A stretch of 64,000 nucleotides of DNA from Candidatus Kapaibacterium sp. (lineage in GTDB: Bacteria; Bacteroidota; Ignavibacteria; Kapaibacteriales; NICIL-2). The notes below the pieces were generated by a model that made no database searches, was not told the origin of the DNA, and was given only the letters and a program-made list of their open reading frames with translations. A program made the position numbers and the translations under genes. The DNA is taken from contig JANWWF010000002.1 of assembly GCA_025055755.1 (NCBI GenBank), positions 199,628-263,627 on the forward strand. Direction: 5' to 3'. Within the stretch, counting starts at the first letter, position 1. Every line of letters starts with the position of its first letter. Of the stretch, positions 14,040 through 42,475 are shown in pieces.

Positions 14040-14072
14040 AAATCAGCTTGTATCACTACCGAAAGAGATACA

Positions 14073-17315: not shown

Positions 17316-17351
17316 CGGGTTCATTATTGTAATGAATGTCCAACAAAATTT

Positions 17352-20300
17352 GTGATGGAGCCAATGAAAATGCATGCTTATGTAGTGAGCGCTATCCTAT
17401 TGCTGTTTGGCATATCCTCATGGGCACGCGACATAGATCGAGCGAAGTATGGCAAAAAACTTGTACAGCCTCAAGCAGCGCAGTTCAATGACCTACGGCA
17501 AAACACCGTTAGCCGGGTACGATTTATGATCACCAATTATGGTATTTTTGGTCTCGACGTAGCACGCAATCAGGGGGGAGGATTTTGGCCACGTGGCTCA
17601 ACAAATGAGTACATTTTTGGTGGGGGGATATGGTTCGGAGCAATCAAGACGAAGGATGGGTTACCTCGGAAGATGAGTGTAATCTCCTATAATCCAAACT
17701 CAGGTGCCTCATGGATGACACCGGGATCGATTGATGATGGGGACGAAGCAGATCGATCGCCAGAAGCAGTGTTGAAAAACCGTGTGTACCTTAGTACGGA
17801 TTTTGTTCGCGCAAATGGTCTGCCACGTAATCCTGCGGATGGCCCTAACTGGCCAATCTGGGATAGCAATCCCAATGACACGTTAGCAAATCGTTCCGTT
17901 ATCAAGGATAGAACGCGTTACCTCGGCTTCTACATTAATGATGTAGATAAACGAAATATTGCGACCTTCCCTAAGGGTCCAGCGTTTATTTCGCAGGAGG
18001 ATATCTTCACCGTTTATAAGGACACTGACCTTCGAGTGTATGAGATCGGGGAAGATGCTGCAAAGGCGGAGGGATATCCGCTCCGCATCCAGGTAGAGCA
18101 AACTGTGTACACATGGGGATTTGGTGAATACGCAAACTTCTACTTTATTCGTTACAACATTATCAACCGTTCGACAGATACACTCTATGAGTGCTGGATG
18201 GCTCCAGCATTTGATTTCGACTTAGCGGCAGCACCCAATTTTGCAGCTGGTGCGGGTAATGATCGCGTAAGCTACTATTTCCAGGATACCACACTCAACT
18301 TGGCATACCAATGGACCAATACTGATCGGGGAGAGCGAGGACGCCGCTTTGGGTATGTTGGTATGACATTTCTAGAAAGCCCTGCAGTCGATGAAAATGG
18401 CTTTATTCGTCGCGATAAACTCTATTATCCTCTCAGCGAGCAACTGGGATTGCGGACATTCCGAAACTGGGTTATTGACATTGACCCGAAGACTACAATT
18501 GAGCGATATGACTTTATGGCGTCGGGGGCGCGAGATGGGGATACTGGGCCGGGGGATAAACGCTTCCTCATGGCCACAGGACCATTCAATATGCGGCCAG
18601 GGGATACGGCTCGTGTGGTTGTAGGGACGATTTTTGCCCTTCCTGTAAAGGAAGAAGCAGATGGGACGGTAGAGGATTTAGTGAATCTTGTGCGTCGGAC
18701 TCAGTTTGCCCAAAGAGTGTATGATAATGGCTTTGCAGCTCCTGAACCTCCTGAACCCCCAAGAGTAACTACCCAACCGCTCAACCACGCGATTATTGTC
18801 AGCTGGGACACTACAAGCTACGCCTCTTACGACCGCGAGGAAAAGGGAATGGATATCATGGGATTCCGCATCTTCCGTTCGCGTGTTCCCACCCAGGATA
18901 CTTTTGACGTTGACTTTCGCTCACCAAGTGCTGAATATCCTGGCGGCCGTGGACCGTTCGGGTGGAAGCAAATAGCTGAGTGGATAACGCCATCGCCCTT
19001 CGTAATGACTGCAATTATGTCGGATAGCTCGAACATGTTAAGTGCGCGTTATCCATGGATACGCATCTTTCCTCGCGCATCCAAATCCAGCTATCGAACC
19101 TTGTATCCAGGATTTCTTAGCTCATCGGATGTGACAAATGACAGTGTTATTTTGATTCGGCGTCTTCCGAATACCACCAGCGAACCATGGAGAAGTTTTT
19201 GGCAGCCTCTTGTGCCTCAGCAGACGTATTCGAATCCGATACGGTATGATACGCTGACGCTCGGTATCATTCGTATTTTGCCGGGGGGAACACTTCCTCC
19301 ACTTCCTACTACTACCACCGATACAGCCACTATGAACCGTGCGATGCTGGTTCTCTGGCCTCAGATTACCTCAGGATTAGCACGCCTTCAATGGTTCCAA
19401 GATGACTGGGTTGATCTTCCATGGGCACGAGCGATAATCCGTAACTACCTCGATAGCGTTACAAACAATCGCACCTTCCTCGATTTGGGAGATGATAATG
19501 GAGATGGTGTTATCAATCGTGATGAAGATCTCCGTCGCCGTGAGGAAATTTTGAATAACGTCGAGTATTACTACAAAGTTGTTGCCTTGGACGAAGGGGA
19601 CTATGTCCAAGCCACGCCTATCAAAACCAGTATCTCTGTTGATTTACTCAATGTTGTTCAAGGGTTTGCTTTAGCGCCGGGACCATATCGGCAGCCTTCT
19701 ATTGAAACCACCTATGATCCAAATCAGCTCGGTGGACTTTATAACTTTCGTCTTATTCCCAAAGACCCCGATCGTTTTGCTCAATTGTTTGGGGGGCATG
19801 AAATTGAGCTCGAGTTTCAACCTTCGGTATCTGGATTCAGCGGATACAATTGCCTCGATACACTGTGGAATAACAATGCCACCTTTTACAAGGGCATTTA
19901 TGGCAATGAATTGATTGTGCGGGACAAGACAACGGGGAAGGAGCTTAACCGATACAATGTCCTCTATGAACCTGCCGATTGCTTGTTTGATAACTTTTAC
20001 TCGGATGTTGCAATGCTCTATGTATCGCCGCAGACGGGGCAATACCTATCGTTCTGTGAGGACATGCTACGGGGAGCAAATGATACCACGCTGTTTGTGC
20101 ATCCGTTTAATACCAGCGTTACTGCCCGTGGTGGATCGTGGACCACAGATAAGCCTTGCTTGGGAGGTGATCGCACGATTGCGGGGACTTTCGGAATAGC
20201 ATTTGACTACTACATTCAGCAGTTTGGAGGGATTTTCCGTCCCTACCGTATCGCGAAACTCAGTGGTAATGCGAACACCTTTTTAGAATTTCGTCCGCGT

Positions 20301-21455
20301 CGTGCTGAACTAATTCCTAAGGCAGAACCAGTCCAGGTGAATTATCGAACACTCCGCTTCCAGCGTTTCAATAATGGAGCAGGTATCTATGAAGTGGAGT
20401 TTCTTCCTGGAGGAGTTGAGACCATCACTACAACTTTCCTTCGACGGCGAGGTATTGGACAATTCGATACGATAAGACGGACATTTGATGCGTCCTATCT
20501 TAATGTTCGAGTGCGGAACATACGTACTTACAAACGACCTCTCCCGAACGGAGACTCCGTTCTCGTTCAATACGGTGACGATGTTCCCCATGTTAGCCAG
20601 GCATTACCAGCCAATCTAAGCGATTACAATCAAGATGGCTCGGTGAGCACCGTCCCATACCCCCACCCGCGTCTTGTTCCCATAGGATCGTTCAACCTGT
20701 CAGCCTATGCATGGAAAAATGGTCGTTACACCCCAGCGACGTGGAGTATTCGCGATGCGGTGACAGCGCGTGATACTCAAGCAGCTGCTAATAACAGTGG
20801 TGCTCCAGTTGGTACTCAAGGGAGGTACTACCTTTCGACGGTTACCCCCGAGGGAGACACGATTGATTTTACCCATGCACTTCTGATCGATGGAGCTACA
20901 TTCTGGCTAGATTTTGCAGGGAAGGGAGGACGCAATGGAACCGCAGCAGGACGGCAAACACCTCTGCCACCAGACACTGCAACGGCAACAGTGGACTTCA
21001 GGCCAGGAGATAAGATTATCATTGAAACGATAGGTGGTCCGTTTGGCTTACCACTTCCTGGAGCGAAGGTAACGTTCAAGGTGTCTGATGTACAAGTCCC
21101 CCAAGATCGCCTGACAGATGCAGATTTGGACAACATTGTTATTGTTCCTAATCCCTATGTCATCACCCACGTGGGGCAAAAGTCTTCCTATGATGCTAAG
21201 ATTTATTTCACTCGATTACCAAAGGAATGCACCATCAAAATCTACACAGTCGCTGGTGATCTTATACGAACAATTCGGCATGTCGATCAAGATGGCACAT
21301 TCCGCGTGGGTATGGACGTGTGGGATTTGCTCAGTGACAATCGCCAGCGAGCAGCATCACAAGGCTTGATTGCAGTAATTGAAACGCCAAATGGTGCGCA
21401 AACGGTCAAGAAGTTTGCTGTCGTTGTTGGCGGTGCACGTATTCTGGGACGATAG
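17352..21455 (+). CDS. porU: Large secreted protein with T9SS CTD; candidate PorU-like C-terminal signal peptidase
   Basis: 1367 aa, signal peptide; C-terminus NIVIVPNPYVITHV...KIYTVAGDLIRTI...VWDLLSDN...GLIAVIETPNG is a Por-type sorting domain; gene ends 2 nt before the PorV-like gene (porU-porV synteny). Peptidase C25 domain not verified. Confidence 0.4.
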   Translation: MMEPMKMHAYVVSAILLLFGISSWARDIDRAKYGKKLVQPQAAQFNDLRQNTVSRVRFMITNYGIFGLDVARNQGGGFWPRGSTNEYIFGGGIWFGAIKTKDGLPRKMSVISYNPNSGASWMTPGSIDDGDEADRSPEAVLKNRVYLSTDFVRANGLPRNPADGPNWPIWDSNPNDTLANRSVIKDRTRYLGFYINDVDKRNIATFPKGPAFISQEDIFTVYKDTDLRVYEIGEDAAKAEGYPLRIQVEQTVYTWGFGEYANFYFIRYNIINRSTDTLYECWMAPAFDFDLAAAPNFAAGAGNDRVSYYFQDTTLNLAYQWTNTDRGERGRRFGYVGMTFLESPAVDENGFIRRDKLYYPLSEQLGLRTFRNWVIDIDPKTTIERYDFMASGARDGDTGPGDKRFLMATGPFNMRPGDTARVVVGTIFALPVKEEADGTVEDLVNLVRRTQFAQRVYDNGFAAPEPPEPPRVTTQPLNHAIIVSWDTTSYASYDREEKGMDIMGFRIFRSRVPTQDTFDVDFRSPSAEYPGGRGPFGWKQIAEWITPSPFVMTAIMSDSSNMLSARYPWIRIFPRASKSSYRTLYPGFLSSSDVTNDSVILIRRLPNTTSEPWRSFWQPLVPQQTYSNPIRYDTLTLGIIRILPGGTLPPLPTTTTDTATMNRAMLVLWPQITSGLARLQWFQDDWVDLPWARAIIRNYLDSVTNNRTFLDLGDDNGDGVINRDEDLRRREEILNNVEYYYKVVALDEGDYVQATPIKTSISVDLLNVVQGFALAPGPYRQPSIETTYDPNQLGGLYNFRLIPKDPDRFAQLFGGHEIELEFQPSVSGFSGYNCLDTLWNNNATFYKGIYGNELIVRDKTTGKELNRYNVLYEPADCLFDNFYSDVAMLYVSPQTGQYLSFCEDMLRGANDTTLFVHPFNTSVTARGGSWTTDKPCLGGDRTIAGTFGIAFDYYIQQFGGIFRPYRIAKLSGNANTFLEFRPRRAELIPKAEPVQVNYRTLRFQRFNNGAGIYEVEFLPGGVETITTTFLRRRGIGQFDTIRRTFDASYLNVRVRNIRTYKRPLPNGDSVLVQYGDDVPHVSQALPANLSDYNQDGSVSTVPYPHPRLVPIGSFNLSAYAWKNGRYTPATWSIRDAVTARDTQAAANNSGAPVGTQGRYYLSTVTPEGDTIDFTHALLIDGATFWLDFAGKGGRNGTAAGRQTPLPPDTATATVDFRPGDKIIIETIGGPFGLPLPGAKVTFKVSDVQVPQDRLTDADLDNIVIVPNPYVITHVGQKSSYDAKIYFTRLPKECTIKIYTVAGDLIRTIRHVDQDGTFRVGMDVWDLLSDNRQRAASQGLIAVIETPNGAQTVKKFAVVVGGARILGR

Positions 21456-21457
21456 TA

Positions 21458-22561
21458 TTGCAACTACGGAGAATTAAAGCTATGCAAGTAGTATTTGTGA
21501 TTACTGTTGTTTATTCGCTTTTGAGTGTTTGCAGCAGTGTCATTGCTCAGCCTCCACAAGCGCAAGGCTCGTCGGCAGGAGAGTTCCGTAAGGTTGGTGC
21601 TGCTGGAGCCCAATTTTTGAAGATCGGTGTTGGGGCACGCGCCAACGGCATGGCTGGAGCATTTACTGCTATCGCGAATGACCCCTCGGCCCTCTTTTAC
21701 AACAATGCTGGCATTGTAGATATCAAAGGTTATATGGGCTCGTTCTCCTACATTCAGTGGTTTGGCGGCTATTCCCACAATTTTATCGCAGGGATTGTGC
21801 CGATGGGAGAGAATTACCGTGCTGCTTTATCTGTCACTTCGTTTACAAGCGGTCCTATACCGTTTGCCACTATTCAAGATGAAAACCGACTCAATACGAC
21901 GTATAGCATCACAGACGTAGCAATCGGTGGGACCTTTGCTGCCCAGCTTACTGACCAGTTTTCGTTTGGTGTAACTCTAAAGTACATCCAGAACGGCATT
22001 GGGGGCATGAGTGCCAGCGGAATTCTAGCAGATGTTGGCACTATGTACCGTTTTCGAGGAGTGCGATTAGGATTTTCCATTAGCAATTTAGGTCCGCCTC
22101 TCCAATTTTCGGGGGGAGATTTGAACTTCCGCACCGACTTGCTACGCGAGCTCCAATATCAACAAATAGATGCCTCCTACTTGGTGAATCCATTCAATGC
22201 ACCAATTTCGTTGAAGGCAGGATTAGCAGCAGACTTGACGACGGAACTATTGGGATTGTATGATTCCGATCCGAATCTTGCGATTAACCAATCACGAGAG
22301 CATCGGTGGCTTATGGCCCTTGAATTTGAAACACTTTCCGATGTCCCAGAACAGCTTGCAATAGGAACAGAGTATACCTGGAATGATTTGCTATCCATTC
22401 GAGCAGGCTATCGCTATAACCAAAGCGTGTTTGGCTTTAGTGGTGGTATAGGGATTCGCTACATAGGCAGCGGCTTCGAGGGTATGCTTGATTACTCAAT
22501 TCATCCCAGCTCAACCCTTGGCATAGTTAATCGTTTTTCCTTGACAGTTCGTCTTGATTGA
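21458..22561 (+). CDS. porV: PorV/LptO-like T9SS outer-membrane beta-barrel (FadL/OmpP1-like)
   Basis: 367 aa; signal peptide then GAAGAQFLKIGVGARANGMAGAFTAIANDPSALFYNNAGI, matching the conserved PorV N-terminal motif. Confidence 0.65.
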   Translation: MQLRRIKAMQVVFVITVVYSLLSVCSSVIAQPPQAQGSSAGEFRKVGAAGAQFLKIGVGARANGMAGAFTAIANDPSALFYNNAGIVDIKGYMGSFSYIQWFGGYSHNFIAGIVPMGENYRAALSVTSFTSGPIPFATIQDENRLNTTYSITDVAIGGTFAAQLTDQFSFGVTLKYIQNGIGGMSASGILADVGTMYRFRGVRLGFSISNLGPPLQFSGGDLNFRTDLLRELQYQQIDASYLVNPFNAPISLKAGLAADLTTELLGLYDSDPNLAINQSREHRWLMALEFETLSDVPEQLAIGTEYTWNDLLSIRAGYRYNQSVFGFSGGIGIRYIGSGFEGMLDYSIHPSSTLGIVNRFSLTVRLD

Positions 22562-22586
22562 TCCACTGTGTCGCACCTTGATTGTT

Positions 22587-22640
22587 CGAGTTCTCTTTGA
22601 TGTAGAACTCACAGCGCAGAGCAAAGCTTTTTTCCCCTTA
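22587..22640 (+). terminator. Possible intrinsic terminator after porV (gagttct/agaactc hairpin, downstream T-run)
   Basis: 7-bp stem 22588-22594/22604-22610, T6 at 22628-22633; spacing is loose. Confidence 0.3.
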
Positions 22641-22651
22641 ATGTAAGTGCC

Positions 22652-24085
22652 ATGATGAGGCACAAGTGGTGGCTTACGGTGATTGCGCTGTTGGCAATAC
22701 AGCTATCGGTTATTGGCCAGCAGACGTTTCCTCTGTCTCTTTCAATATCTCAGTTCCGGGCAGATTCGATACGAACACGCGTAGAAGTAGCGTACTCGAT
22801 TGCGGATACACATCTAGTCCACCAAATACATAGCAGCCATCCCGACTATGCTGTTGTTGCGGCAGAAATTCAATTTTTCATTAGTAGCCCTGCTTATTCC
22901 GATTCTCTAACGGTGGTTTTGGAAAGTACAAAGTCTATTAGGGATACAACTTGTGCACTGCTGGTCGGTAAGCGGGTTTTCCTCCTCCTGCCTGATCAAT
23001 ATACCTTGACTGTTCGTATACGCGATGCGCTCCGCCAACGGAGTGCAGTTTTGGAACGTAAAATACCATTAGTGGTGCGTAGCTTAAGTGAACGCTCTGT
23101 GCTTAGTGCAAGCAGCATCGAGTTAGCACAATTTATTCGCTATCACAATACTGATGATGTAGAGCAGAAAAATCCCTCATTTGTCAAGAATGGGTTTTAC
23201 GTTGTTCCTCTGCCATCTCACACGTATGAAGGTACAGCTCCAATACTCTATGCCTACACGGAGCTATATGGACTTGAGCAATGCCGGTGTGACAGTATCC
23301 AGCTTCATTATCGTATCCTGGATGCTGCCCACAACGAAGTGTTTGACCTACGATACGTGAGACCGGTTGTTGGAGAGGCCCAGGCAGAGATTATATCTAC
23401 TTCGCTGGATGGTTTAGCAAGTGGCGTGTACTACCTTACATTAGCGGTCGAGCGCTCAACAAAAGAAGAACTATTGCTGGGACGACAACAGTTTTTTCTT
23501 CTCAATCCCGAGCTACCTCCCCAACAGCCAACAGTCTTGAGCGAAGACGAGCTTTTTCTCCAAAGTCCCTTTGCTACTATGGATAATGCCCAGCTGGAAG
23601 TTGAGATTGCCTCCGCGCGTTTTATTGCACGTGCTACTGAATTAGATCCATACTTTCAGCTCACAGACATCGCTGCAAAACGGCGCTTTGTGTTCCGCTT
23701 CTGGCTGCAGCGTGATCCTGATCCATCAACTCCAGTTAATGAGCGGTATGAAGAATTCCGTCGTGCACGGGAGTATGCCGCAAAATTTTACAGGACTCCC
23801 CGCTTCCCAGAGGGCTGGAATAGTGACCGAGGACGTGTACTTCTAAAGTACGGTTTCCCCACACAAATCGATCGAGCATACTTCAACATGGACGGAGCGC
23901 ATCCCCATGAAATCTGGCGTTACGATAATGTGCAAGGAGGGGTAATATTCGTGTTTGTTGATCAACAGGGGACAGAAAACTTTGTCCTCGTGCATTCGAC
24001 GGCGCTTAATGAAATTCGAAATGAAAACTGGTATCGGCAATTTGCCATGCCGAATTACCTTGATCCAAACGCTCGGGTTCGATAA
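22652..24085 (+). CDS. GWxTD-domain protein (secreted)
   Basis: 477 aa, signal peptide; C-terminal region ...FPEGWNSDRGRVLLKYGFPTQ...EIWRYDN... contains the GWxTD-type core motif. Confidence 0.55.
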   Translation: MMRHKWWLTVIALLAIQLSVIGQQTFPLSLSISQFRADSIRTRVEVAYSIADTHLVHQIHSSHPDYAVVAAEIQFFISSPAYSDSLTVVLESTKSIRDTTCALLVGKRVFLLLPDQYTLTVRIRDALRQRSAVLERKIPLVVRSLSERSVLSASSIELAQFIRYHNTDDVEQKNPSFVKNGFYVVPLPSHTYEGTAPILYAYTELYGLEQCRCDSIQLHYRILDAAHNEVFDLRYVRPVVGEAQAEIISTSLDGLASGVYYLTLAVERSTKEELLLGRQQFFLLNPELPPQQPTVLSEDELFLQSPFATMDNAQLEVEIASARFIARATELDPYFQLTDIAAKRRFVFRFWLQRDPDPSTPVNERYEEFRRAREYAAKFYRTPRFPEGWNSDRGRVLLKYGFPTQIDRAYFNMDGAHPHEIWRYDNVQGGVIFVFVDQQGTENFVLVHSTALNEIRNENWYRQFAMPNYLDPNARVR

Positions 24086-25981: not shown

Positions 25982-28390
25982 ATGCGTATTGTCCTTTCTT
26001 GGTTGCAAGAACTTGTCGAGTGGCGCGGTACGGTATCTGAACTTTCCTCGCTATTAGTAAATGAAGGTATCGAAGTCGAGGCTATTGAGGAGGTAGGGAT
26101 ACACACAGAGGCAATTGTTACAGCGCAAGTTATCGAAGTAATGCCCCATCCCGCTGCAGATCATCTTGCGGTGTGTACGGTGTATGATGGTAGCTCAAGG
26201 CGCCAAGTCGTATGTGGGGCACCTAATGTTCAAGTTGGACAACTTGTTGCACTTGCTCTTCCCGGTGCTCGGTTGCCGAATGGACAAGTGCTTGACAGCC
26301 GAAAAATTCGGGGTATTGATTCGCAAGGAATGCTTTGCTCCGAGTCGGAATTAGGTATCGGGGAAGACCATAGTGGAATTGTTGTACTCGATGAAAAAAT
26401 TGGGGTTGGGGTTCCATTGTATAAGGTGTATCCACCAGATGTTGTTTTGGAAATAGGAATCACACCCAATCGTGCCGATGCGCTGTCCCATTATGGTGTT
26501 GCGCGGATTATTGCCGCCGCTTCGGGATGTACAGCTCGTCTACCTGCAGTGGAAGAGATACAGGCGCAACAAGTCATTCCAATCGAGATCGTAGAGCCTG
26601 ATCTGTGTCCACGGTATGCAGGTGCTTTATTGGAGGGAGTCCATCCGTATCCATCGCCCCCCTGGTTAGCGCGTCGGTTGCAGCTTGCCGGAGTCCGCTC
26701 CCGGAATCTGATTGTTGATGTAACCAACTATGTTATGCTTGAATGCGGACAACCACTTCATGCATTTGATTATGAACGGCTTGCCCAGGGGCGTATCGTA
26801 GTTCGCCGCGCGATTCAAAATGAACGGATAACAACTCTGGACGGAGTGGAACGGACGCTTGACAGTGAAACGCTCTGTATTTGTGATGCTGAGCGTCCGC
26901 AAGCTGTGGCGGGCATCATGGGCGGATTAGAGTCTGCAATCAGTAGTGAGACCAGGCAAGTATTGATCGAGTCTGCATATTTTGCACCTCGCAATATTCG
27001 TCGAACGGCGAAAACATTGGGGCTGCACACAGATGCAGCATATCGCTTCGAGCGAGGTACAGACGTCGAAATGGTGCCATACGCCTTACGCCGCGCAGCA
27101 ACCTTAATTGCTCGTTTGAGCAATGCTCAGATAACCCATTGGGCTGACTGTTATCCTCGTCCATGGAAAGAACCTACTGTGGAGTTCCGCTTCGACCATG
27201 CACGTCGAGTGTTAGGAATGGATATTAGCCGATCAACTTTCATATCAGCGATAGCAGGACGTGGCTTCAATATCATCTCAGAGGGGGAGAAAGGCCTCAC
27301 TGTGAGGGTGCCATCATTTCGGCATGATGTTCGTTCCGAAATTGACCTTATCGAAGAGGTAGCTATTGGGGTCGGTTATGACACAGTTCCTCCTTCGCCA
27401 TCTGTAACCCTTTCTTTGTCCCTGGATACAGTTCCAGCGCCACTTGAGGTGTCTCCCGTGCGGCAGGATGTACGGCAGTACTTAGCAGCAATTGGCTTCC
27501 ACGAAGCATTGAGTTATAATCTCAGTGATCCTGCAACCCTCTTGGAAGCGGAAAAGGCGGTGGAAATCGCTAATGCGTTGGGACGAGAACGGAGTGTGCT
27601 GCGGCAGTGGCTTTTGCCAACTATGGTGGAAATTCTCTCGCGGAATGCACGCTGTGGAGTGCGAATTATTCGGGTTTTTGAAATAGGCAAGGTTTTCCGC
27701 CAAGAGCACACTATCACAAGCACAGGCATTCCGGTGACAGAGGAAGAGCACTTGTGCATTGCATTAGCAGGGATATATCGCGAGCGCCATTGGCTTGAGC
27801 CATCGAGACCAGTGGATTTTTTCGATCTCAAAAGTGCAGTTGAGGGGCTAACGAGACGGTTTAGAATGCTCTGTCAATGGCGAGTTGCATCAAGGATGTC
27901 CCATCTTCATCAATGGTTGCAAGACCCGGTCGTGGAGATTCTTCTCGATGGTCAAGTGATCGGTTATGCAGGATCTATTTCCCCTCGACTGTTGCGTCAA
28001 TACGACATTGCCGACGGTGCTGTGGTTGCAGAACTTTCAATGAAGCCTTTCTACGAACGTCGGATACAGTGGGATCATTATCAGCCTCCGTCGCCATTTC
28101 CAACAGTGGTGCGAGATATCGCAGTAGTAGTGGATAGTACAATTCCCAGTGCTGCTCTTGAGGCAACAATTCGAGACGCTATTGGTGAGCTTGTGTCCGA
28201 TGTGGCGCCATTTGATGTCTTTGAGCATCCGGGGCTTGGCGAAGGCAAAAAAAGTATTGCATTTACTCTTACCTTTAGCTCTTCTGAGCGAACATTAACA
28301 GATGAAGAGGTTAACATGGCCGTCGAACAAGCAGTGAAGGCACTTGCGTCTGCTTATGGTGCTGTGCTACGATCGTCAACCACTCAGTGA
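25982..28390 (+). CDS. pheT: Phenylalanine--tRNA ligase beta subunit
   Basis: 802 aa; MRIVLSWLQELVEW start, tRNA-binding, B3/4, B5 and FDX-ACB layout typical of PheT; no pheS adjacent. Confidence 0.9.
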   Translation: MRIVLSWLQELVEWRGTVSELSSLLVNEGIEVEAIEEVGIHTEAIVTAQVIEVMPHPAADHLAVCTVYDGSSRRQVVCGAPNVQVGQLVALALPGARLPNGQVLDSRKIRGIDSQGMLCSESELGIGEDHSGIVVLDEKIGVGVPLYKVYPPDVVLEIGITPNRADALSHYGVARIIAAASGCTARLPAVEEIQAQQVIPIEIVEPDLCPRYAGALLEGVHPYPSPPWLARRLQLAGVRSRNLIVDVTNYVMLECGQPLHAFDYERLAQGRIVVRRAIQNERITTLDGVERTLDSETLCICDAERPQAVAGIMGGLESAISSETRQVLIESAYFAPRNIRRTAKTLGLHTDAAYRFERGTDVEMVPYALRRAATLIARLSNAQITHWADCYPRPWKEPTVEFRFDHARRVLGMDISRSTFISAIAGRGFNIISEGEKGLTVRVPSFRHDVRSEIDLIEEVAIGVGYDTVPPSPSVTLSLSLDTVPAPLEVSPVRQDVRQYLAAIGFHEALSYNLSDPATLLEAEKAVEIANALGRERSVLRQWLLPTMVEILSRNARCGVRIIRVFEIGKVFRQEHTITSTGIPVTEEEHLCIALAGIYRERHWLEPSRPVDFFDLKSAVEGLTRRFRMLCQWRVASRMSHLHQWLQDPVVEILLDGQVIGYAGSISPRLLRQYDIADGAVVAELSMKPFYERRIQWDHYQPPSPFPTVVRDIAVVVDSTIPSAALEATIRDAIGELVSDVAPFDVFEHPGLGEGKKSIAFTLTFSSSERTLTDEEVNMAVEQAVKALASAYGAVLRSSTTQ

Positions 28391-28394
28391 ATGC

Positions 28395-29987
28395 ATGCTG
28401 ATGGAAGAAAATGTTGCAACTGTTAAAGCGGAGATAGAGCGTTTGTGGAAACAGCTCTACAACATTGGCGCGATGCTACAAACAACAGCCGAGCAGTACC
28501 GTGCAGCTCGTGAGACAAACAGGAAACTTGAAGCGCAAGTTCAGGGGCTATCAGAGCAACTTAAGTACTACGAGCACCAGCAGGAGGAGATAAGCCACCT
28601 TCGTTCCGCACTCCAATCGGCTGAAGATCGGCTTAGACAAGCTAATGAGGCAATTGCTCTTTTAGAGCAGCAGCGGCAGCAATTAGAGCAGGTGCTCAAT
28701 GCCCAACAGTTAGAATTTGAAAGCTATGAGCAGCTTCGTTCGGAACTTACTACGCTGCAACAGTTATATGGGCAGCTGACCGAAGACTATCGTGCTGTCC
28801 AGCAACAAGTTGCACAGGTGGAAACCCTGGAAAAAGAAAACCTCCAGTTACGAGATATTATCGCACAATACGAGCATGAACACCTACGCGCAGTTGCGCA
28901 GCAAGAAGAGCTCGACTATCTCCGGCAGCTTGTTGAACAACTCCGAAGAGAGAAGGAGGACTTGGCTGGCCAATTGGCGGCAGAGAAAGAAACTCAACAA
29001 TTGCTTCAGCAGAAGATTGTGCAAGGAGAAGCTCTTCGCCTCGAATTAGAAAAAGCAAATGCAACTGTTGCAGATCTTCGTACCCAATTGCGGCAGAAAG
29101 AGACTGAGATAGCACAGCTTCGCCAGCATGTTGATTATGCAGAACAGGTACTGGCGAATTCACTACCCAACGAGATGTTTGAACAATGGAAACGTCAACT
29201 GCAACAAGAATTGGAAAGCAGTGCTGCACATGCAGCAGAACTTGCTGAACAACTACACCGTGTCGGAGCAGAGCGAGATGACCTACTGGAGACACTCAAA
29301 CAGAAACAAACTGAGTTGGAACAACTGCAATCTCAATATGACACCTTACGCAAGCAGTACGATGAACTGGTGCAAAGTCATTCCCAGATCAATAGCAATG
29401 ATTCAAGTGAAAGGGAGCAAGTGAGCAAGTTATTGCAACAACTTGAACTGAGCGAAAAGGCAGCTCAACAGCACCAGCAACGATTAGTAGAGCTAACCGA
29501 GCAAATAGCAAATCTCCAAAGTCTTGTGGCACAGTATCAGCAACAGCAGCAGAGCATCGAACAGCAAATAGCCGATGCTCTTTCTCCCTTTCAAATTAAA
29601 CTAGAAGCTGCAGAGCGGGAACGCAAGCACTTACAAGAGCAGATTTTGCATCAGCGGCAGCGCATTGTACAGCTTGAAGATGAGCTTCGAAAGGAGTTAG
29701 AAAGAAACATCCTTCTCAAACGCCGAATCCGGCAGCTGGAAGGTTTTCCTTCCTCCGTGCAGATAACTCAAGTTTTAGAAGCAATTCGTCACCTTCATGA
29801 GCAATTGGTTGCTAATGTTCATTCCGATCAAGAGGGTGGTTACTCATCTGTGTCTCCGGAGCTGAGGGAAGTAATAGCACAGGTAACACAATTGGTAAAC
29901 CACCGACTAAATTTGGTATTTGAGGAGGACCTCCGTCGAGCAGTTACTGAATGTCGGTGCTTACTGGAGGAGTACTTGCGTCGATAA
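28395..29987 (+). CDS. Long coiled-coil protein (Q/E/L-rich), function unknown
   Basis: ~530 aa of heptad-like low-complexity sequence (LEQQRQQLEQVLNAQQLEFES...); start immediately after pheT stop; directly upstream of zapA. Confidence 0.5.
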   Translation: MLMEENVATVKAEIERLWKQLYNIGAMLQTTAEQYRAARETNRKLEAQVQGLSEQLKYYEHQQEEISHLRSALQSAEDRLRQANEAIALLEQQRQQLEQVLNAQQLEFESYEQLRSELTTLQQLYGQLTEDYRAVQQQVAQVETLEKENLQLRDIIAQYEHEHLRAVAQQEELDYLRQLVEQLRREKEDLAGQLAAEKETQQLLQQKIVQGEALRLELEKANATVADLRTQLRQKETEIAQLRQHVDYAEQVLANSLPNEMFEQWKRQLQQELESSAAHAAELAEQLHRVGAERDDLLETLKQKQTELEQLQSQYDTLRKQYDELVQSHSQINSNDSSEREQVSKLLQQLELSEKAAQQHQQRLVELTEQIANLQSLVAQYQQQQQSIEQQIADALSPFQIKLEAAERERKHLQEQILHQRQRIVQLEDELRKELERNILLKRRIRQLEGFPSSVQITQVLEAIRHLHEQLVANVHSDQEGGYSSVSPELREVIAQVTQLVNHRLNLVFEEDLRRAVTECRCLLEEYLRR

Positions 29988-30087
29988 TGCGCATAAGTGG
30001 CGAATTCTACAACAAAGTTTATTGATTTCCGTTTTTTCAAGCGGTCGAGTTTGTAAATTCGACCAGTGCAACGATGATGGAAGCCAA

Positions 30088-30387
30088 ATGACGACGGTGA
30101 CGGTTACTATTGGTGGACGTCAGCTTCGGCTACGATGTGAAGATGAGCAGCGCACGCTCAAAGCAGCTGCAGAGGTCGAAAACGTTTTTCGTGCCTTACA
30201 ACACGAGTCAAGCGATCAATCAACACCAATACTGACACTTCTTGCTGCCCTTAACATAGCTGAACGGCATGATGCCGCAAGAGAACAGTACAAGGCTACC
30301 CTTGAGTATGTTCTGGAACAGCTTCGTGCAATGAGCATATACGCTGATGATATTATACGCCAAACGGTAGAGTTAGCAGCAGGATAG
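30088..30387 (+). CDS. zapA: Cell division protein ZapA
   Basis: MTTVTVTIGGRQLRLRCEDEQRTLKAAAEVENVFRAL... matches ZapA N-terminal pattern; ~100 aa (upstream part of listed ORF judged non-coding). Confidence 0.7.
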   Translation: MTTVTVTIGGRQLRLRCEDEQRTLKAAAEVENVFRALQHESSDQSTPILTLLAALNIAERHDAAREQYKATLEYVLEQLRAMSIYADDIIRQTVELAAG

Positions 30388-32409: not shown

Positions 32410-33261
32410 TTATCCCTTCCTTTGCGGTGAGGCTTGTTCTGCTTCGTACTGCTGCAGCTTTTTTCGCAGGTCATTACAAATTTGCGTATGAATTTGGCAT
32501 ATGCGACTTTCTGTTAGCCCAAGAATTTCACCTATTTCCTTGAAGGTGAGCTCTTCATAGTAGTACAGTGTCATTACTAATCGCTTGCGCTCGGGAAGCT
32601 GTTGAAGGTACTCTCGTACAAAGTTGACTCGCTCCTCTCGTACGAGTCTTGAAAATGGAGTCTCTGCATCAAAGTCGGGTAACTCTTCTATCGTGTCATG
32701 CTCATTGCCTTCATCATCATAAGTAACCTCCGAATTCATCATCGAAAACGTGGCGTTCGCAGCTGCCATCGCACTTAGGTATGACTGGTACTCTTCCGGT
32801 GATATACCCAGTCGTGCTTGAATTTCCTCTGGTGAGGCTTCGCGTCCAAGTTCACTCCGGAGACGGTCACTTATTTCCGTTAGCTCGTGAACTTTTTGAC
32901 GGGCTGATCGTGAAAGCCAATCTAGTTTACGCATTTCATCAAGAATGATGCCGCGAACGCGAGGTACTGCAAAGGTTTCGAACTTGATACCTCGCTCGGG
33001 CTCGAAGCGCTCAATTGCGTCGTGCAATCCAAGAATTCCTACATGGAGGAAATCTTCCTCATTCAGCAGCGCGTTTGAAGGTATGTTCATGTTGTAGAGC
33101 GTGTATCGCACGATCCAGAGGTAGTGCAGGAGTAATTGTCGTTTGATCTCATTTTTTCGTGCTTTTGAGATACGGCGCGAGCGCAACTCTTGCCAGAGTT
33201 CTGCAAAAGCTATCTCTCCTGTTGTTCCCTGCTGAGAAGGGGATATTTTTTGCATGGCCAT
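32410..33261 (-). CDS. fliA: RNA polymerase sigma factor FliA/WhiG family (sigma-28)
   Basis: 283 aa; regions 2-4 of sigma-70 family with FliA-like conservation (LWQEL...YLWIVRY...GILGLHDAIERFEPERGIKFETFAVPRVRGIILDEMR). Confidence 0.7.
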   Translation of the reverse strand: MAMQKISPSQQGTTGEIAFAELWQELRSRRISKARKNEIKRQLLLHYLWIVRYTLYNMNIPSNALLNEEDFLHVGILGLHDAIERFEPERGIKFETFAVPRVRGIILDEMRKLDWLSRSARQKVHELTEISDRLRSELGREASPEEIQARLGISPEEYQSYLSAMAAANATFSMMNSEVTYDDEGNEHDTIEELPDFDAETPFSRLVREERVNFVREYLQQLPERKRLVMTLYYYEELTFKEIGEILGLTESRICQIHTQICNDLRKKLQQYEAEQASPQRKG

Positions 33262-33269
33262 AATCTACG

Positions 33270-33653
33270 CTATTGTTGGACAGACTGCTCTATAGGAGGA
33301 GGCGCTTGCTGTGTCGGCGGAGTAGAAGAGCGCAGGTGACCGCTTGGGAATGTCGAGAGGAGTGCGGCCATCTGTTCCTCTTCCGCAAGTCGCTGCTTTT
33401 CTTGTAGTTCTTGTTGCTTTATAGCATGGAGCACAGCAACAACTGTGACCATAACAATACTTCCTGCAACTGAAAAGCCAAGAAATATCAGCATGGCACG
33501 CAGGAGTATTCGGTAAATGTCGTTGTCACCTGCAGCCAATTGAATTAGAACGCTAATAGAGGTCGCAAGGGTACTTACGTTGAAGACTAAACCAATAGGA
33601 TAGCGCAAAGTATATTTTTCTTCAGTCCGTTTGGAGGATTTACGTTTGCCCAT
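33270..33653 (-). CDS. Small membrane protein, unknown function
   Basis: 127 aa, two predicted TM helices, Q/E-rich C-terminus; sits where flhG normally lies between flhF and fliA. Confidence 0.35.
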   Translation of the reverse strand: MGKRKSSKRTEEKYTLRYPIGLVFNVSTLATSISVLIQLAAGDNDIYRILLRAMLIFLGFSVAGSIVMVTVVAVLHAIKQQELQEKQRLAEEEQMAALLSTFPSGHLRSSTPPTQQAPPPIEQSVQQ

Positions 33654-33663
33654 GGTTGTAGAA

Positions 33664-34845
33664 TCAGGTTGCTAATGAACGGTTACCAGATGCTCCGAAT
33701 AATGATTTCATCAGATAATCAATGCTTGGCTCGACGAGATCATTGTTTAATCGCGTGCCTGCAGTTAGTAATGAGATGGGGATATCACGATCCCACAGCA
33801 ATGACAGAATATGACCAAGCCGCTGAGCCTCATCGAGTTTCGTCAGCACTAAGCGTATAGCAGAATATCGGTGGTATTGTTCAAGAATTGCTTGGGCAGT
33901 GTTTTGGTCTGAAGTTGCGGGAATCGTGAGAAATACTACGCCGCCATTGTCTTGAACGCAACCCACCACTGACTCAATGAGTGGTAAAGTGCGTTCGGAT
34001 GGTGCAGGTAGATCTACAAGTGTAAAGTGTCGTTCAGCTGTGCACGCTTGTTGAAGCTCTATAGTATTGTGTATAACAGAAAATCCAACCTTGAGGAGGG
34101 AAGCAAATGAACGCAGCTGATCACTTGCCCCCATGCGTTCGTTGTCAGCGTTGAGTATTTGTAAGCTCGAACGGGGATAGCTTTGTTGCAGCCGGATAGC
34201 TGTTTTCATCAATGTCGTTGTTTTGCCACTCCCACTGGGACCAGCAAAAGCAATGATAGGGGGAATTGCGCCGCTAAAGGGAGAGCGTACTCGGAGAAGT
34301 TGGCTCAATATCACACGAAGGCGATCAAGGCATCCGTCAAATGTTACTGCTTTGCCCTCTTCTATGACAGAACTTATTAGATGACCCGCATGGGTCTCAC
34401 TAAATCCCGCATCGCGGAGCATACTGTATAACTGACGGTATGGGTGGGGCAAAACATTGCTATAGCGATAGGCAACTGCGTAGGTGAGTTCTGTGAGTTT
34501 CGCGGAAAGATGGTGAATTTCTTGTTCTAATTTTTCTATATCATTGTTTGCTCGAGAGGTGCCTTCTATAAAGTATCGCAATGGAACAGGTTCCCCTTTG
34601 TCGAGAGCTGGTGTGCGGCTATGAAATGAGGGAGCACCCGCCGCATGAATTACCGTTTGGCTTGGGAATGCGGATGTATTAGTAGCCATCCCGACAACTT
34701 CTGCAAATGGTTGGCCACTGCTATCTATCCCCGATTGAGTTGCCAGAAGCAATGCATCCTCTCCCAATTCGCGACGCATGGCTTCGAGTGCTTGTCGCAG
34801 TGTAGGGGCTATAAATTTTTTTGTTCGTGTTGCCATGAAATGCAT
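33664..34845 (-). CDS. flhF: Flagellar biosynthesis GTPase FlhF (SRP-type)
   Basis: 393 aa; N-terminal MHFMATRTKKFIAPTLRQALEAMRRELGEDALLLAT (FlhF B-domain pattern), GPSGSGKTTTLMK P-loop, LTKLDEA motif. Confidence 0.7.
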   Translation of the reverse strand: MHFMATRTKKFIAPTLRQALEAMRRELGEDALLLATQSGIDSSGQPFAEVVGMATNTSAFPSQTVIHAAGAPSFHSRTPALDKGEPVPLRYFIEGTSRANNDIEKLEQEIHHLSAKLTELTYAVAYRYSNVLPHPYRQLYSMLRDAGFSETHAGHLISSVIEEGKAVTFDGCLDRLRVILSQLLRVRSPFSGAIPPIIAFAGPSGSGKTTTLMKTAIRLQQSYPRSSLQILNADNERMGASDQLRSFASLLKVGFSVIHNTIELQQACTAERHFTLVDLPAPSERTLPLIESVVGCVQDNGGVVFLTIPATSDQNTAQAILEQYHRYSAIRLVLTKLDEAQRLGHILSLLWDRDIPISLLTAGTRLNNDLVEPSIDYLMKSLFGASGNRSLAT

Positions 34846-35043
34846 CCTTGCAGAGGGGACTTCTCTCCACTAACCGTAAAAACTGTGCCAGATTTCCCTT
34901 CCGCAGCTTTTCCGTTTAGCTTTATATTGCAAAAGACAATAAGCGTCAGCAATGTTGGGGGGAAAGAGCGACATTGAGCTTTACACCACCCCGAGCAAGC
35001 GACGCTGATGCAGGGTCATCGTTTCTCAACTACCTGTTCAAAA

Positions 35044-36102
35044 ATGTCCTCTCAGACTTCTGGCGGTCAGCTGTACGTTGTCTCGACTCCTATTGGTAAT
35101 CCTGATGACATCACTCTTCGTGCCCTTGCTGTGCTTCGCACTGTTGACATAGTTGCGTGTGAAGAAAGAAAGGTAGCGGAAAAGTTGCTCCGACAGTATC
35201 ACATCGAAAAAGAATTAATAGAGCTTAATGAACACACTGATATTGAAGCAACTGTAGAATGCATTAAACTCTTAGCTTCTGGAAAGAACATAGCCCTGAT
35301 TAGTGATGCAGGAACTCCCCTTGTTGCTGATCCAGGCGATGCGCTTGTTGCTGCTGCACTTAGGTATGGGTATGCTGTTCATGTTATACCAGGAGCCTCC
35401 AGCATCCTTGTTGCCTTAGTGCGGTCAGGATTCTCCACAGAACAATTCCTCTACGCTGGCTTTCTCAGCAGAAAGCATGAACAGAGAAAAAAACAAATTC
35501 AGCTGCTATCCCACGAACCTCGGACAGTCATCCTTTTAGATACACCATACCGATTAGTTCCATTGCTAAATGCCCTCGCAGAAGTAATGCCGGATCGTCG
35601 GGCATATATCGGATGCAACCTCACAATGCCAAACGAAGTTCATTACTATGGGACCTTTGCTGAACTACTGGCAGAATTTGCCCAAAAGCATTTCCGGGGG
35701 GAATACGTGATTGTCTTCGAAGGTAATCCTAATAAGCAGCAATGGTACCAGGAGCTTGTTCAGGGCAGTAAAGAGCAAGCGGATCAATGCTTCGCTACGG
35801 AAAGCAATCTGAATACTGTTGGGAGCGATCGTTGTAGAGGAACTGTTCAAAGTGCCACAGGTGTAGAAGCAACACCAACTACTGTTGCGCCGATGGTGAA
35901 GGAGAGTCAGAAGCAAACCCTGCATCGTTTGCGACAACGCAATAAGCATAAGCGACAAGGAAAGAGACAAAAAGGAAACTGCCGCTCTCTTGAGCAGCGT
36001 ACTGTCAACTACACGCTAAGCAGTTCTCACCGCTTGCATCGGCAATCCATGCAAGAGGAGCACGGCGGTTTTAGACTAAACCGTAAGCGGCGACGAAGAT
36101 AG
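35044..36102 (+). CDS. rsmI: 16S rRNA 2'-O-methyltransferase RsmI with ~110-aa basic C-terminal extension
   Basis: LYVVSTPIGNPDDITLRALAVLRTVDIVACE tetrapyrrole-methylase start; canonical domain ends near YVIVFEGNPN, then Lys/Arg/Gln-rich tail to 36102. Confidence 0.7.
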   Translation: MSSQTSGGQLYVVSTPIGNPDDITLRALAVLRTVDIVACEERKVAEKLLRQYHIEKELIELNEHTDIEATVECIKLLASGKNIALISDAGTPLVADPGDALVAAALRYGYAVHVIPGASSILVALVRSGFSTEQFLYAGFLSRKHEQRKKQIQLLSHEPRTVILLDTPYRLVPLLNALAEVMPDRRAYIGCNLTMPNEVHYYGTFAELLAEFAQKHFRGEYVIVFEGNPNKQQWYQELVQGSKEQADQCFATESNLNTVGSDRCRGTVQSATGVEATPTTVAPMVKESQKQTLHRLRQRNKHKRQGKRQKGNCRSLEQRTVNYTLSSSHRLHRQSMQEEHGGFRLNRKRRRR

Positions 36103-38253: not shown

Positions 38254-38925
38254 ATGAAGCGTCACGAGCTTCGCCAGGTTATCAGCGAAGGCGAAAATTC
38301 CCGTGTCGAGTTCAAGCGGCGTTTTACTTCACCAGAAAAAATTGCAAAAGAGCTCTGCGCGTTTGCTAATACCCACGGGGGGTACTTGTTACTGGGTGTT
38401 GATGATGATGGAAAAATTGTTGGGGTAGAAAGCGAAAAAGAACAGGTTGAACAAATTCTGCTTGCTGCGCAGTTTTACATCGAGCCGCCATTGACCGTTG
38501 AAATTGAGATCGTGGAAATTGAGTGGAAAGACGTGGTCGTTGTGCATATTCCTCCAAGTCCCCACCGTCCGCACTGGGTAGTAGAGCAGACGCGGAACAG
38601 CCGACGGCGCGGGACGGTTTACGTGCGAAGCCGCTCAGAGTCAGTACAGGCAAGCCGTGAGATGGTTCGCCTGATGCGCGAGCAGCGTCCGGATTCACCT
38701 CCCCTTCGGTTATACATTGGTGAGCGAGAGCGACGATTGTTTGAATACTTGGAAAAAAATGGTTCAATCACTGTGGCGGAGTTTGCTCGCTTAGTCAATA
38801 TTTCCCGACGACGGGCATTACAAGTACTGATCCGTTTAGTGCGTGCACAGGTGCTTGTCCTTCACAGCGATGCCCCTACGAACTACTTCACTCTTGTTGA
38901 AGACCCTGGCAACGTCATGCCGTGA
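38254..38925 (+). CDS. AlbA_2 (Schlafen-like) putative DNA-binding domain protein with C-terminal HTH
   Basis: RVEFKRRFTSPEKIAKELCAFANTHGGYLLLGVDDDGKIVGVE matches AlbA_2/divergent-AAA DNA-binding domain; C-terminal winged-helix-like segment. Confidence 0.55.
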   Translation: MKRHELRQVISEGENSRVEFKRRFTSPEKIAKELCAFANTHGGYLLLGVDDDGKIVGVESEKEQVEQILLAAQFYIEPPLTVEIEIVEIEWKDVVVVHIPPSPHRPHWVVEQTRNSRRRGTVYVRSRSESVQASREMVRLMREQRPDSPPLRLYIGERERRLFEYLEKNGSITVAEFARLVNISRRRALQVLIRLVRAQVLVLHSDAPTNYFTLVEDPGNVMP

Positions 38926-39082
38926 GGGAAACTTAAAGCTTGAGTCAGTGTGTACACAAGCAACTTGTGGATAGATCACCAGGATGTAAACTCTGGTTGA
39001 TGGGAGCAAGTGGTAGCATACCTTTTCTTTCTGTGCTATTGAATGTTTCAGCTTTGTACTGAGGCGACAGATGGGAAAATTG

Positions 39083-39628
39083 TTATCCCCTACGCTTTTT
39101 AGGTTGTAAGCTGTTAGGTGGCTGATAAATCTGCAGCAATCCTTCGGGCGGGGAGACAACAAGGGCAGAAGAAGTGTCGTCGTGGGAAACGATAAATGCT
39201 TCCACGTATGGGAGAAGAAGCTCCGCTCCATCTTGCGCCGTGATATGCAGAATTGGGTGTGCAGGTGATTGCTCAACAGCGGTAATAGTGCCTAAAATCT
39301 CTCCGGAAGTGGTTCGAACCTGGTGTCCCAGCAATAAGTGGGCGTGAAGAGCACGAGGGTTTTGGATTGCTGAGGGCTCGACAAAAATTCCTTGTTCTCG
39401 TAGCAACTCGGCTGCTGGACGTGTTGTTATCCCTTTTAGTCGTATGATCGCGGCTCGATGGACAGTGCGGAAGGACTCGAGGATGTACGGCTTACTATAC
39501 AAGGAGCTATAGCCAACCCACACGGTGGTGGAGGGATAAAGCGAGAGACTCTCTCTAAGCTCTACGCGCAACTCACCATTGAGACTATGCGCTCGGACTA
39601 TCGTTCCAATATGCACGCGATTCTCCAT
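39083..39628 (-). CDS. rimM: Ribosome maturation factor RimM
   Basis: 181 aa; IGTIVRAHSLNGELRVEL N-terminal beta-barrel and C-terminal PRC barrel pattern. Confidence 0.7.
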   Translation of the reverse strand: MENRVHIGTIVRAHSLNGELRVELRESLSLYPSTTVWVGYSSLYSKPYILESFRTVHRAAIIRLKGITTRPAAELLREQGIFVEPSAIQNPRALHAHLLLGHQVRTTSGEILGTITAVEQSPAHPILHITAQDGAELLLPYVEAFIVSHDDTSSALVVSPPEGLLQIYQPPNSLQPKKRRG

Positions 39629-42184: not shown

Positions 42185-42475
42185 ATGGTCGCTCTGAATG
42201 CAGTTCCGGTGGGCCAGCCATTTCGAGTCGAAAAGATTTGTGGTCCAGAAAGTTTTGTGGAGCGGATGTACGAGCTTGGGCTTGTACCTGGCACTGTAGC
42301 AACAGTCTTACGGCATTCCCTCCTAGGGGGTACTGTTCAGTTACGTACCGGTACCACGACATTTGCTATCCGCTTGCCTGCTGCAGCCGCGATAATGGTA
42401 ACCCCATTGCGTGAACAACCGATTCCTCATTCATGCCAAAAGTCTGGTGAAATGACCGCTTCCTCCAGCTCATGA
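42185..42475 (+). CDS. feoA: Ferrous iron transport protein A
   Basis: SH3-like FeoA pattern (GQPFRVEKI...RMYELGLVPGTVATVLR); overlaps feoB start. Confidence 0.7.
   Translation: MVALNAVPVGQPFRVEKICGPESFVERMYELGLVPGTVATVLRHSLLGGTVQLRTGTTTFAIRLPAAAAIMVTPLREQPIPHSCQKSGEMTASSSS

Follow-up and report, generated by a model that had tools for sequence, protein, structure and literature searches.

The GTPase FlhF and its MinD-like partner FlhG are considered a conserved pair, in most cases transcribed together, that acts as a switch for the site and the number of flagella, and in Vibrio and Pseudomonas the flhF-flhG-fliA operon is σ54-dependent. We describe here a three-gene operon, flhF-flgV-fliA, that departs from this scheme. 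It lies on a 64-kb stretch of DNA (the whole of which we call the window) from a metagenome-assembled genome (MAG) of an uncultured Candidatus Kapabacteria member of hot-spring origin. The explanation that we favour, at a probability of about 60 %, is that these genes form the regulatory operon of a Kapabacteria lineage (the NICIL-2/HR20 group) whose flagellar regulon is dispersed and whose FlhF is without FlhG.

The switch operons of polar and peritrichous flagellates such as Vibrio, Shewanella, Pseudomonas, Campylobacter and Bacillus (flhF-flhG-fliA) resemble the window operon in that an FlhF made of a FliG-interaction domain (FID), a linker and an NG domain is encoded just upstream of fliA, and the window likewise has a conserved FID and a candidate σ54-type promoter. 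The window operon differs in lacking flhG, which is probably missing from the genome altogether, in being unattached to flhA/flhB, and in the catalytic motifs of its FlhF, where DTxG at the G3 motif has become DLPxxS and GQ at G5 has become GT. FID-linker-NG is the published architecture of FlhF, the FID being the part that binds FliG, and canonical FlhF undergoes, according to a review, a hydrolysis cycle stimulated by FlhG. Within Kapabacteria, the consecutive genes 19-22 in the published tables of Ca. Thermonerobacter are, in this order, flhF, flhG (MinD-like), a gene for a hypothetical protein and the gene of a sigma factor of FliA type. Type-1 FlgV (the Borrelia burgdorferi BB0268 family; Zamba-Campero et al. 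2024, PMC10802407) is a small protein with two transmembrane (TM) segments encoded at the junction of the flhF(-flhG) and σ28 sub-modules, and Type-2 FlgV is a ring protein of Helicobacter pylori and Campylobacter jejuni (PMC10655999). FlgV relatives have been reported in flagellar operons only, and the Fibrobacteres-Chlorobi-Bacteroidetes (FCB) group, Bacteroidota included, is not among the FlgV-bearing phyla listed by the FlgV study (PMC10802407).

The window operon consists of three minus-strand open reading frames (ORFs; Table 1) encoding an SRP-type (signal recognition particle-type) GTPase, a small membrane protein and a sigma factor. The latter matches the FliA/WhiG model TIGR02479 at 228.8 bits (cutoff 189.6) and contains the sigma-70 regions 2, 3 and 4 (PF04542, PF04539, PF04545). 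The gaps between the genes are 10 bp (flhF to the small ORF) and 8 bp (the small ORF to fliA), so that a remnant of flhG cannot fit between them. Because the public protein identical to the FlhF-like product (P0001), which belongs to MAGs named Candidatus Kapabacteria bacterium, has 390 aa, the true start of flhF is probably the ATG at 34836 (MATRTKKF...) and not 34845. The operon is flanked upstream of flhF by the divergent rsmI (TIGR00096, 200 bits) and downstream of fliA by a convergent gene for RNase Y, found by Pfam scan. We scanned all plausible-gene ORFs of at least 110 aa in the window against Pfam and/or NCBIfam and found no flagellar or chemotaxis gene besides the module; the remaining genes are housekeeping genes and components of the type IX secretion system (T9SS). 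A previous sequence-only reading of this DNA had described an isolated minus-strand flhF-small ORF-fliA module with a sigma-28 factor, without flhG, away from all flagellar structural genes and preceded by a divergent rsmI, in a genome that also carries T9SS genes; our annotation agrees with it on each of these points, within 64 kb as regards the structural genes and on the basis of a PorV/PorQ-family protein and a sorting-domain protein as regards T9SS.

The same reading had taken the GTPase for FlhF rather than FtsY or Ffh. The ORF carries an SRP54-type GTPase domain (Pfam PF00448), and its best NCBIfam match is FlhF (TIGR03499, 122.1 bits), the FtsY and Ffh models reaching 46 and 36 bits, respectively. 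That the FlhF score falls below the curated cutoff of 174 marks a divergent member of the family and, together with an NG fold common to FlhF, FtsY and Ffh, could be taken as the sign of a divergent FtsY or Ffh. We give this virtually no credence and reject it, as NCBIfam, structure database and fold comparisons all favour FlhF by a wide margin. A sequence search of the PDB was led by the FlhFs of Bacillus subtilis and Shewanella putrefaciens (2px0, E=6e-18, and 8r9r) with FtsY at E=1e-6, and the AlphaFold model (mean predicted local distance difference test score, pLDDT, 81) retrieved FlhF structures as its top three Foldseek matches (TM-score 0.84-0.85). Also speaking for FlhF are an FlhF-specific N-terminal domain, the TKLDE form of G4, the lack of both the M domain and the A domain, and the presence of fliA in the operon.

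The predicted structure of FlhF begins with a β-α-β-β domain (residues 7-54, pLDDT ~90), continues with a disordered linker (58-100) and ends with the NG domain. The N-terminal domain is FID-like: its predicted fold agrees with what has been published on the FID, the alignment to the TIGR03499 hidden Markov model begins at residue 8, and the motif RTKKFxAPTLRQAL..ELGxDALLL is common to the FlhFs of the window clade and to canonical FlhFs. When the PDB was searched with a clade profile, a solved FID (9EN1) came first, with a marginal E value of 0.17. No other part of the protein is nearly as conserved as this segment: residues 5-36 show 86 % identity within the clade and 49 % to canonical FCB FlhFs, compared to 46-50 % and 17-28 %, respectively, for the linker, N and G domains.

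The module is conserved in related genomes, as the sequence-only reading had asked to be checked. An orthologue cluster at ~50 % identity comprises bacterium HR20, Chlorobi bacterium NICIL-2 and Ca. Kapaibacterium sp. KatS3mg038/040, and the same arrangement, flanks included (DUF3098 - rsmI, flhF - small ORF - fliA, RNase Y - ZapA - pheT), was found in eight further loci from different assemblies (L001-L007 and L019; loci of relatives are given L numbers throughout). The module ORFs are intact in all clade loci, one small ORF being merely under-called, and the small ORF is present in all nine. We compared substitution patterns in close pairs and identities between the window and its relatives. 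The ratio of nonsynonymous to synonymous substitution rates (dN/dS) is 0.036 for the RNase Y gene (~90 % identity), 0.05-0.07 for fliA (~75 %), ~0.2 for flhF (~50 %) and 0.24-0.4 for the small ORF (~45 %). FlhF and the small protein thus evolve several-fold faster than the neighbouring genes. The intact ORFs and low dN/dS values indicate that flhF, the small ORF and fliA are all under purifying selection and functional.

While the architecture of FlhF is preserved, part of its catalytic site is not. G1 (GPSGSGKTTT) and G4 (TKLDE) are intact in 14 of 14 clade representatives, and in the same 14 the G3 motif reads D[LF]P[AP][PST]S, not DTxG, and G5 reads GT, not GQ. G2, canonically DTxR, is DNER in the window protein and DTER in most clade members. 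With G1 and G4 intact, binding of guanine nucleotide is probably retained. The glycine of G3 contacts the γ-phosphate in SRP GTPases; hydrolysis and sensing of the nucleotide state would for that reason be impaired. Canonical DTxG and GQ are found in the FlhFs of L009 (P0020), L014, L010, L012 and L015, which include all four flhG-containing operons examined (L009, L014, L010 and L012). The FlhF of L016, from a sister lineage without flhG in the operon, has decayed along another route, with G2 lost, DDNS at G3 and GT at G5. Eroded motifs therefore occur in two of three flhG-less lineages, the third, L015, being an intermediate that is flhG-less with canonical motifs. Proteins of Desulfovibrio/Desulfobaculum type annotated as FlhF (P0055, P0064 and P0072) likewise have non-canonical G2/G3 (DLPG, DMPA, DLPA) and no GQ at G5, and judged by these motifs erosion of the FlhF catalytic site occurs beyond Kapabacteria.

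Relatives present the operon in five states. State (i) is flhF-flhG-X-fliA-HDOD with a long X, the gene preceding fliA, in L009, L014 and Thermonerobacter; X has 247 aa in L009 and 271 aa in L014, a Kapabacteria MAG. In state (ii), flhG-X-fliA-HDOD, flhF is not adjacent (L020/L021); state (iii) is a solitary flhF (L008); state (iv) is flhF-X-fliA without flhG and with an X of 147-150 aa (L015 and L016-L018); and state (v), with an X of 118-127 aa and eroded FlhF motifs, is that of the window clade. X and fliA are the invariant core of the module. The operons of state (i) are like that of the window in that flhF, X and fliA are orthologous, stand in the same order and are detached from the structural genes, none of the three being attached to flhA/B; those of L009 and L014 also share a TGGCAC-type box upstream of flhF with the window clade, and both adjoin T9SS cargo genes. 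They are unlike it in possessing flhG and the HDOD gene and in the length of X (247-271 aa versus 118-127 aa), and the window FlhF, with its eroded motifs, is only 25-27 % identical to those of L009 and L014, which are 37 % identical to each other.

flhG has been deleted from the operon of the window clade, and the locus L015 allows the loss to be placed in order. Its small protein is the closest to that of the window (40 %), and the C-terminus of its FlhF is canonical (IDTVGR, NGQ), being 40 % identical to that of L014 and 23 % to that of the window. A canonical FlhF in an flhG-less operon implies that flhG left the operon before FlhF eroded. As erosion has occurred twice independently, and only in flhG-less operons, it appears that FlhG is gone or no longer acts on FlhF and has not merely been relocated, and we consider flhG to be probably absent from the whole genome.

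One alternative is that the operon has simply been split, with the lineage being flagellated, a normal flhG residing elsewhere and the FlhF-FlhG pair acting in trans. Gene order in the group is fluid enough for this, as seen from flhG-X-fliA-HDOD in L020/L021, the solitary flhF of L008 and a solitary fliO in L016, and in L015 the FlhF motifs are canonical although flhG is outside the operon. We searched for FCB-type FlhGs and obtained many from Ignavibacteria and Kapabacteria relatives; none from the window lineage, as judged by organism name (mostly absent) or by its 1.1-2.2-Mb contigs, was among the best 120 of 410 matches, which is a weak negative because 290 further matches lie beyond these and few carry a name. 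A normally evolving FlhG orthologue would nevertheless be expected at ~54 % identity, as is that of L014, and so inside the range of those 120. Erosion of FlhF in two flhG-less lineages and in 0 of 4 flhG-containing operons, and an FlhF NG domain whose rate of evolution far exceeds that of FliA or RNase Y, also argue against a pair that still works in trans. We regard the split operon as doubtful, though deserving to be kept in mind.

Other features of the flhG-containing operons were noted. Their HDOD gene adjoins fliA at its 3' end, with or without overlap (L009:8489-9451, L014:12445-13332, L020:11204-12202) and is absent from the flhG-less operons of the window clade and L016; it may be another partner lost together with flhG. 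The FlhGs at L009:5840-6655, L014:10001-10792, L020:9169-9984, L010:11116-11937 and L012:6378-7277 have short N-termini and no recognisable DQAxxLR enhancer helix, and for this reason we suspect that even those of these lineages that have FlhG may lack its canonical stimulation of FlhF. In L020:9169-12202 and L021:8781-11814 the order is flhG-flgV(112 aa)-fliA-HDOD, the neighbours being a divergent 768-aa protein and then SusC/SusD, with a second sigma-70-family gene ~5 kb downstream.

The small ORF has no curated family match in Pfam or NCBIfam, and a word-index search with it found the identical protein alone. Its AlphaFold model is a hairpin of two helices (18-40 and 46-101) followed by a low-confidence, disordered polar tail, in agreement with the two-TM protein with a Q/E-rich tail that had been read from the sequence; TM1 covers about residues 18-40, and TM2, from ~46, continues into a long charged helix. 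An exhaustive HMMER search gathered 22 family representatives of 82-225 aa, which have no consistent Pfam or NCBIfam family; X aligns with the long forms among them. Clade small ORFs and the X proteins of flhG-containing operons are collinear (z = 8.8-13.8, with none of 300 composition-preserving shuffles reaching the score) over the basic N-terminus, an LR[YF]P motif, both TM segments and the charged helix, and an hhalign comparison of four small ORFs with X of L009 gave a weak partial match (probability 47 %). A metagenome search with a tighter subgroup of small proteins yielded one informative contig, of 1.4 kb. At every locus seen, the gene lies directly upstream of fliA and downstream of flhF or flhG.

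Hallmark residues of Type-1 FlgV are found in the window protein as D45, R52 and H76. Of the 22 family members, 18 have D or E at the acidic position and 14 have H, S or N at the polar position; at the arginine position 17 have R and 2 have K, and the residue after it is S in 11 members and A in 7. The comparisons thus identify the small ORF as a shortened orthologue of X that is FlgV-like by position, architecture and these three residues, BB0268 having been compared by its published description. It differs from Type-1 FlgV in that the clade tails end in ...E-x-S-V-x-Q or vary, with no conserved hydrophobic and basic C-terminal peptide, and in that its gene is part of a three-gene operon among housekeeping genes and not of a flagellar superoperon.

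Another small protein considered was FipA, whose gene sits at the end of a flagellar/chemotaxis operon in γ-proteobacteria. FipA is likewise small and membrane-bound and has a functional link to FlhF (PMC11620751), and is unlike the window protein in its DUF2802 domain, in its topology, which is not a two-TM hairpin, and in its genomic position. We rejected this identity, as none of the 22 family members matches PF10975 at E<=0.1.

A further suggestion of the sequence-only reading was that the 127-aa protein functionally replaces FlhG as a partner or regulator of FlhF. The gene does fill the slot between flhF and fliA and accompanies flhF in all clade loci, and its product would be membrane-bound, as FlhG is transiently. 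The same family, however, stands beside flhG in L009, L014 and L020/L021, and the order flhF-flhG-hypothetical protein-sigma factor in Thermonerobacter, for which gene order is the evidence, fits such coexistence; the small protein therefore predates the loss of flhG. It has neither a P-loop nor a DQAxxLR-like helix, and in architecture and hallmark residues it corresponds to FlgV. A role as FlhG replacement is thus very unlikely, and we reject it.

Upstream of flhF we found a σ54-like element with a perfect -24 box (TGGCAC), exact N5 spacing and TTAC in place of TTGC at -12 (Table 1); the σ54 consensus has TTGC(A/T) at -12 and sets GG and GC 10 nt apart. The element is contained in the block CTGGCACAGTTTTTACGG, at a distance of 39 nt from the probable start of flhF, and is the sole near-invariant block in an rsmI-flhF spacer that is otherwise unalignable among seven loci. 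TGGCAC-N5-TT[GAT]C occurs once per locus in the window, L001-L005, L007, L019, L016 and L017, always upstream of flhF; variants are TGGCAT in L006, TGGCACAATATTTCC in L014 and TGGCACGCTTTTTTA in L009. The window has one other intergenic TGGCAC, at 42289, just upstream of feoB. A scan for generic σ70 promoters and terminators gave nothing above chance. The conserved box is a plausible candidate for a σ54-type promoter of the operon.

Is the lineage flagellated? Thermonerobacter and the closed Ch6 genome, both Kapabacteria, have full but dispersed sets of flagellar and chemotaxis genes, and in the lineage of L016-L018 a stand-alone fliO (PF04347, 165 aa; L016:13424-13921, L017:5471-5968, L018:4970-5467) lies amid PAP2, CN-hydrolase and ATP-grasp genes, 2 kb downstream of the flhG-less flhF-flgV-fliA and with fliP, fliQ and fliR not adjacent. 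Such a solitary fliO reflects an extreme scattering of flagellar genes in the group. Upstream of the fliO of L016 (13330-13400), TAAAGCAT-N11-ACGATGCT resembles, by eye, a weak σ28-type promoter (TAAA...CGAT core). For the window clade itself, flagellation is favoured because the constraint on FlhF is strongest in the FID, the part that binds FliG, because all known relatives of FlgV come from flagellar operons, and because the window FliA is as close to the FliAs of flhG-containing operons (51-54 % identity) as those are to one another. Judging from its relatives and these selection patterns, the window clade is very probably flagellated. Of the dispersed regulon with an FlhG replacement that had been proposed from the sequence, the dispersed regulon thus finds support in the scattered genes of relatives, and the replacement does not.

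Several observations weigh against this reading and have to be set beside it. There is no flagellar structural gene in any clade DNA at hand (64 kb plus eight loci of ~6-21 kb, all from the same chromosomal region), and some Kapabacteria MAGs have been reported without flagellar assembly genes. Next to its ATP-grasp orthologue, where L016 has fliO, the window carries an ORF that is not FliO; ORF 3438-3974, considered by synteny, was rejected (z = -0.2). The σ28 consensus (TAAA-N15-GCCGATAA) has no full match in the window, where no candidate target genes lie, and the σ28 -10 box alone occurs there at chance frequency. The -12 element of the σ54-like box is TT[A/T/C]C across loci, without the canonical GC, and the FlhF score, as noted, is below its curated cutoff. 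L020/L021, with flhG but no adjacent flhF, and L008, with flhF alone, mean that flhG could sit elsewhere in the genome, and the Desulfovibrio-type FlhFs with non-canonical G3 mean that erosion of G3 alone is no proof of lost function. No statement on motility of this lineage was found in a literature search that did not cover the NICIL-2 genome paper.

It is conceivable, then, that the clade has lost its flagella and that flhF, flgV and fliA are a trio repurposed for a non-flagellar σ28 programme, perhaps one of the cell surface or T9SS, or a slowly decaying relic. Non-flagellar σ28/WhiG factors do exist, namely Chlamydia σ28 and Streptomyces WhiG, which are FliA/WhiG-family factors with no structural flagellar genes in the region. 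The window σ28 is like them in both respects and unlike them in being linked to the flagellum-specific FlhF and FlgV and in having close relatives with flagellar genes, and nothing in our analysis of it positively points to a non-flagellar regulon. Besides the missing structural genes, the missing FliO and the missing σ28 sites, the degenerate motifs and accelerated evolution of FlhF would suit this alternative. Against it, all three genes have remained undisrupted in every clade genome, with purifying selection acting on each, the FliG-binding FID is the most constrained part of FlhF, FliA is not accelerated, the small protein keeps the hallmark residues of a family whose reported occurrences are all in flagellar operons, fliO is present in the nearest lineage that shares the module, and the σ54-like box is shared with the flhG-containing operons of relatives. 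Retention for a non-flagellar function is therefore less likely than a dispersed regulon, and we consider it improbable.

Returning to the flagellar operon of a lineage without FlhG, we hypothesize the following sequence of events. In this branch of the FCB group, the ancestral operon would have been flhF-flhG-flgV(X)-fliA-HDOD, already separated from flhA/B. In the window lineage, flhG and the HDOD gene would then have been lost from the operon and FlgV cut down to its two-TM core with a short tail. The three genes would be transcribed as a single message from the σ54-like promoter. FlhF would bind guanine nucleotide through G1 and G4 and FliG through its conserved FID, and with G3 and G5 eroded and no FlhG to activate it, the FlhG-stimulated cycle of GTP hydrolysis probably cannot run any longer. 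FlhF may in this way have become a constitutive factor that recruits or places the MS/C-ring, and ceased to be a switch. The FlgV-like protein would be a membrane protein at the flagellar basal body, and FliA would transcribe late flagellar genes located elsewhere.

The operon is a variant of a known system, with nothing that falls outside known categories. If our reading is true, it offers a natural case of separation of function in which the recruiting role of FlhF is kept without its GTPase cycle, and a dated series of operons running from flhG with canonical FlhF, through flhG-less with canonical FlhF, to flhG-less with eroded FlhF, the last reached twice independently. It would also extend the FlgV family to the Bacteroidota/FCB group, and the conserved σ54-like box could serve to find the scattered flagellar regulon in uncultured relatives. 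Were the genes retained for a non-flagellar function in this T9SS-bearing bacterium, an SRP-type GTPase without hydrolysis, a small sensor in the membrane and σ28 would be a new case of flagellar regulators that have outlived the flagellum. The series of FlhG-less, motif-eroded FlhFs and the FCB FlgV should be of use to specialists of flagellar assembly.

Table 1. Positions of the operon, its elements and T9SS-related genes in the window
Feature	Coordinates	Strand	Description or basis
flhF-like gene	33664..34845	-	393-aa ORF; SRP-type GTPase: B domain (FID + disordered linker), N domain, G domain
FID-like N-terminal domain of FlhF, residues 7-54	34684..34827	-	predicted fold and conservation
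degenerate G3 of FlhF	33997..34014	-	D278-L-P-A-P-S283 where DTxGR expected
flgV-like gene	33270..33653	-	127 aa; basic N-terminus, 2 TM, charged helix, disordered Q/E/P-rich tail
fliA	32410..33261	-	283 aa; σ28, FliA/WhiG family
σ54-like element TGGCACAGTTTTTAC	34876..34890	-	candidate; -24 box TGGCAC perfect, N5 spacing exact, -12 TTAC not TTGC
T9SS sorting-domain protein	12003-14039		
CarboxypepD_reg/Plug TonB-type outer-membrane protein	14073-17315		
1367-aa protein	17352-21455		no family match; directly upstream of PorV/PorQ-family gene
PorV/PorQ-family protein	21458-22561		
GWxTD-domain protein	22652-24085		

The T9SS-related genes of Table 1 make up a block at window positions 12003-24085. 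Nearer to the operon, a ZapA-like gene (29920-30387) is overlapped at its start by the gene of a 547-aa coiled-coil protein that has just low-level SMC/Rad50-like matches (the two together occupy 28344-30387), and this pair adjoins RNase Y in all relatives. On the other side, in the region 38254-39628, rimM and a Schlafen/AlbA_2 gene are ~160 bp apart, and the RecQ-like helicase (800 aa; DEAD, Helicase_C, RecQ_Zn_bind and HTH_40 domains) that lies between them in all relatives (e.g. L001:3303-6348) is missing at that position. The RsmI encoded divergently from flhF (35008-36102) has 364 aa, of which ~120 form a low-complexity, strongly basic C-terminal extension (ending in ...RLNRKRRRR); its size in relatives is 366-404 aa, with the exception of L006, where it is 282 aa.

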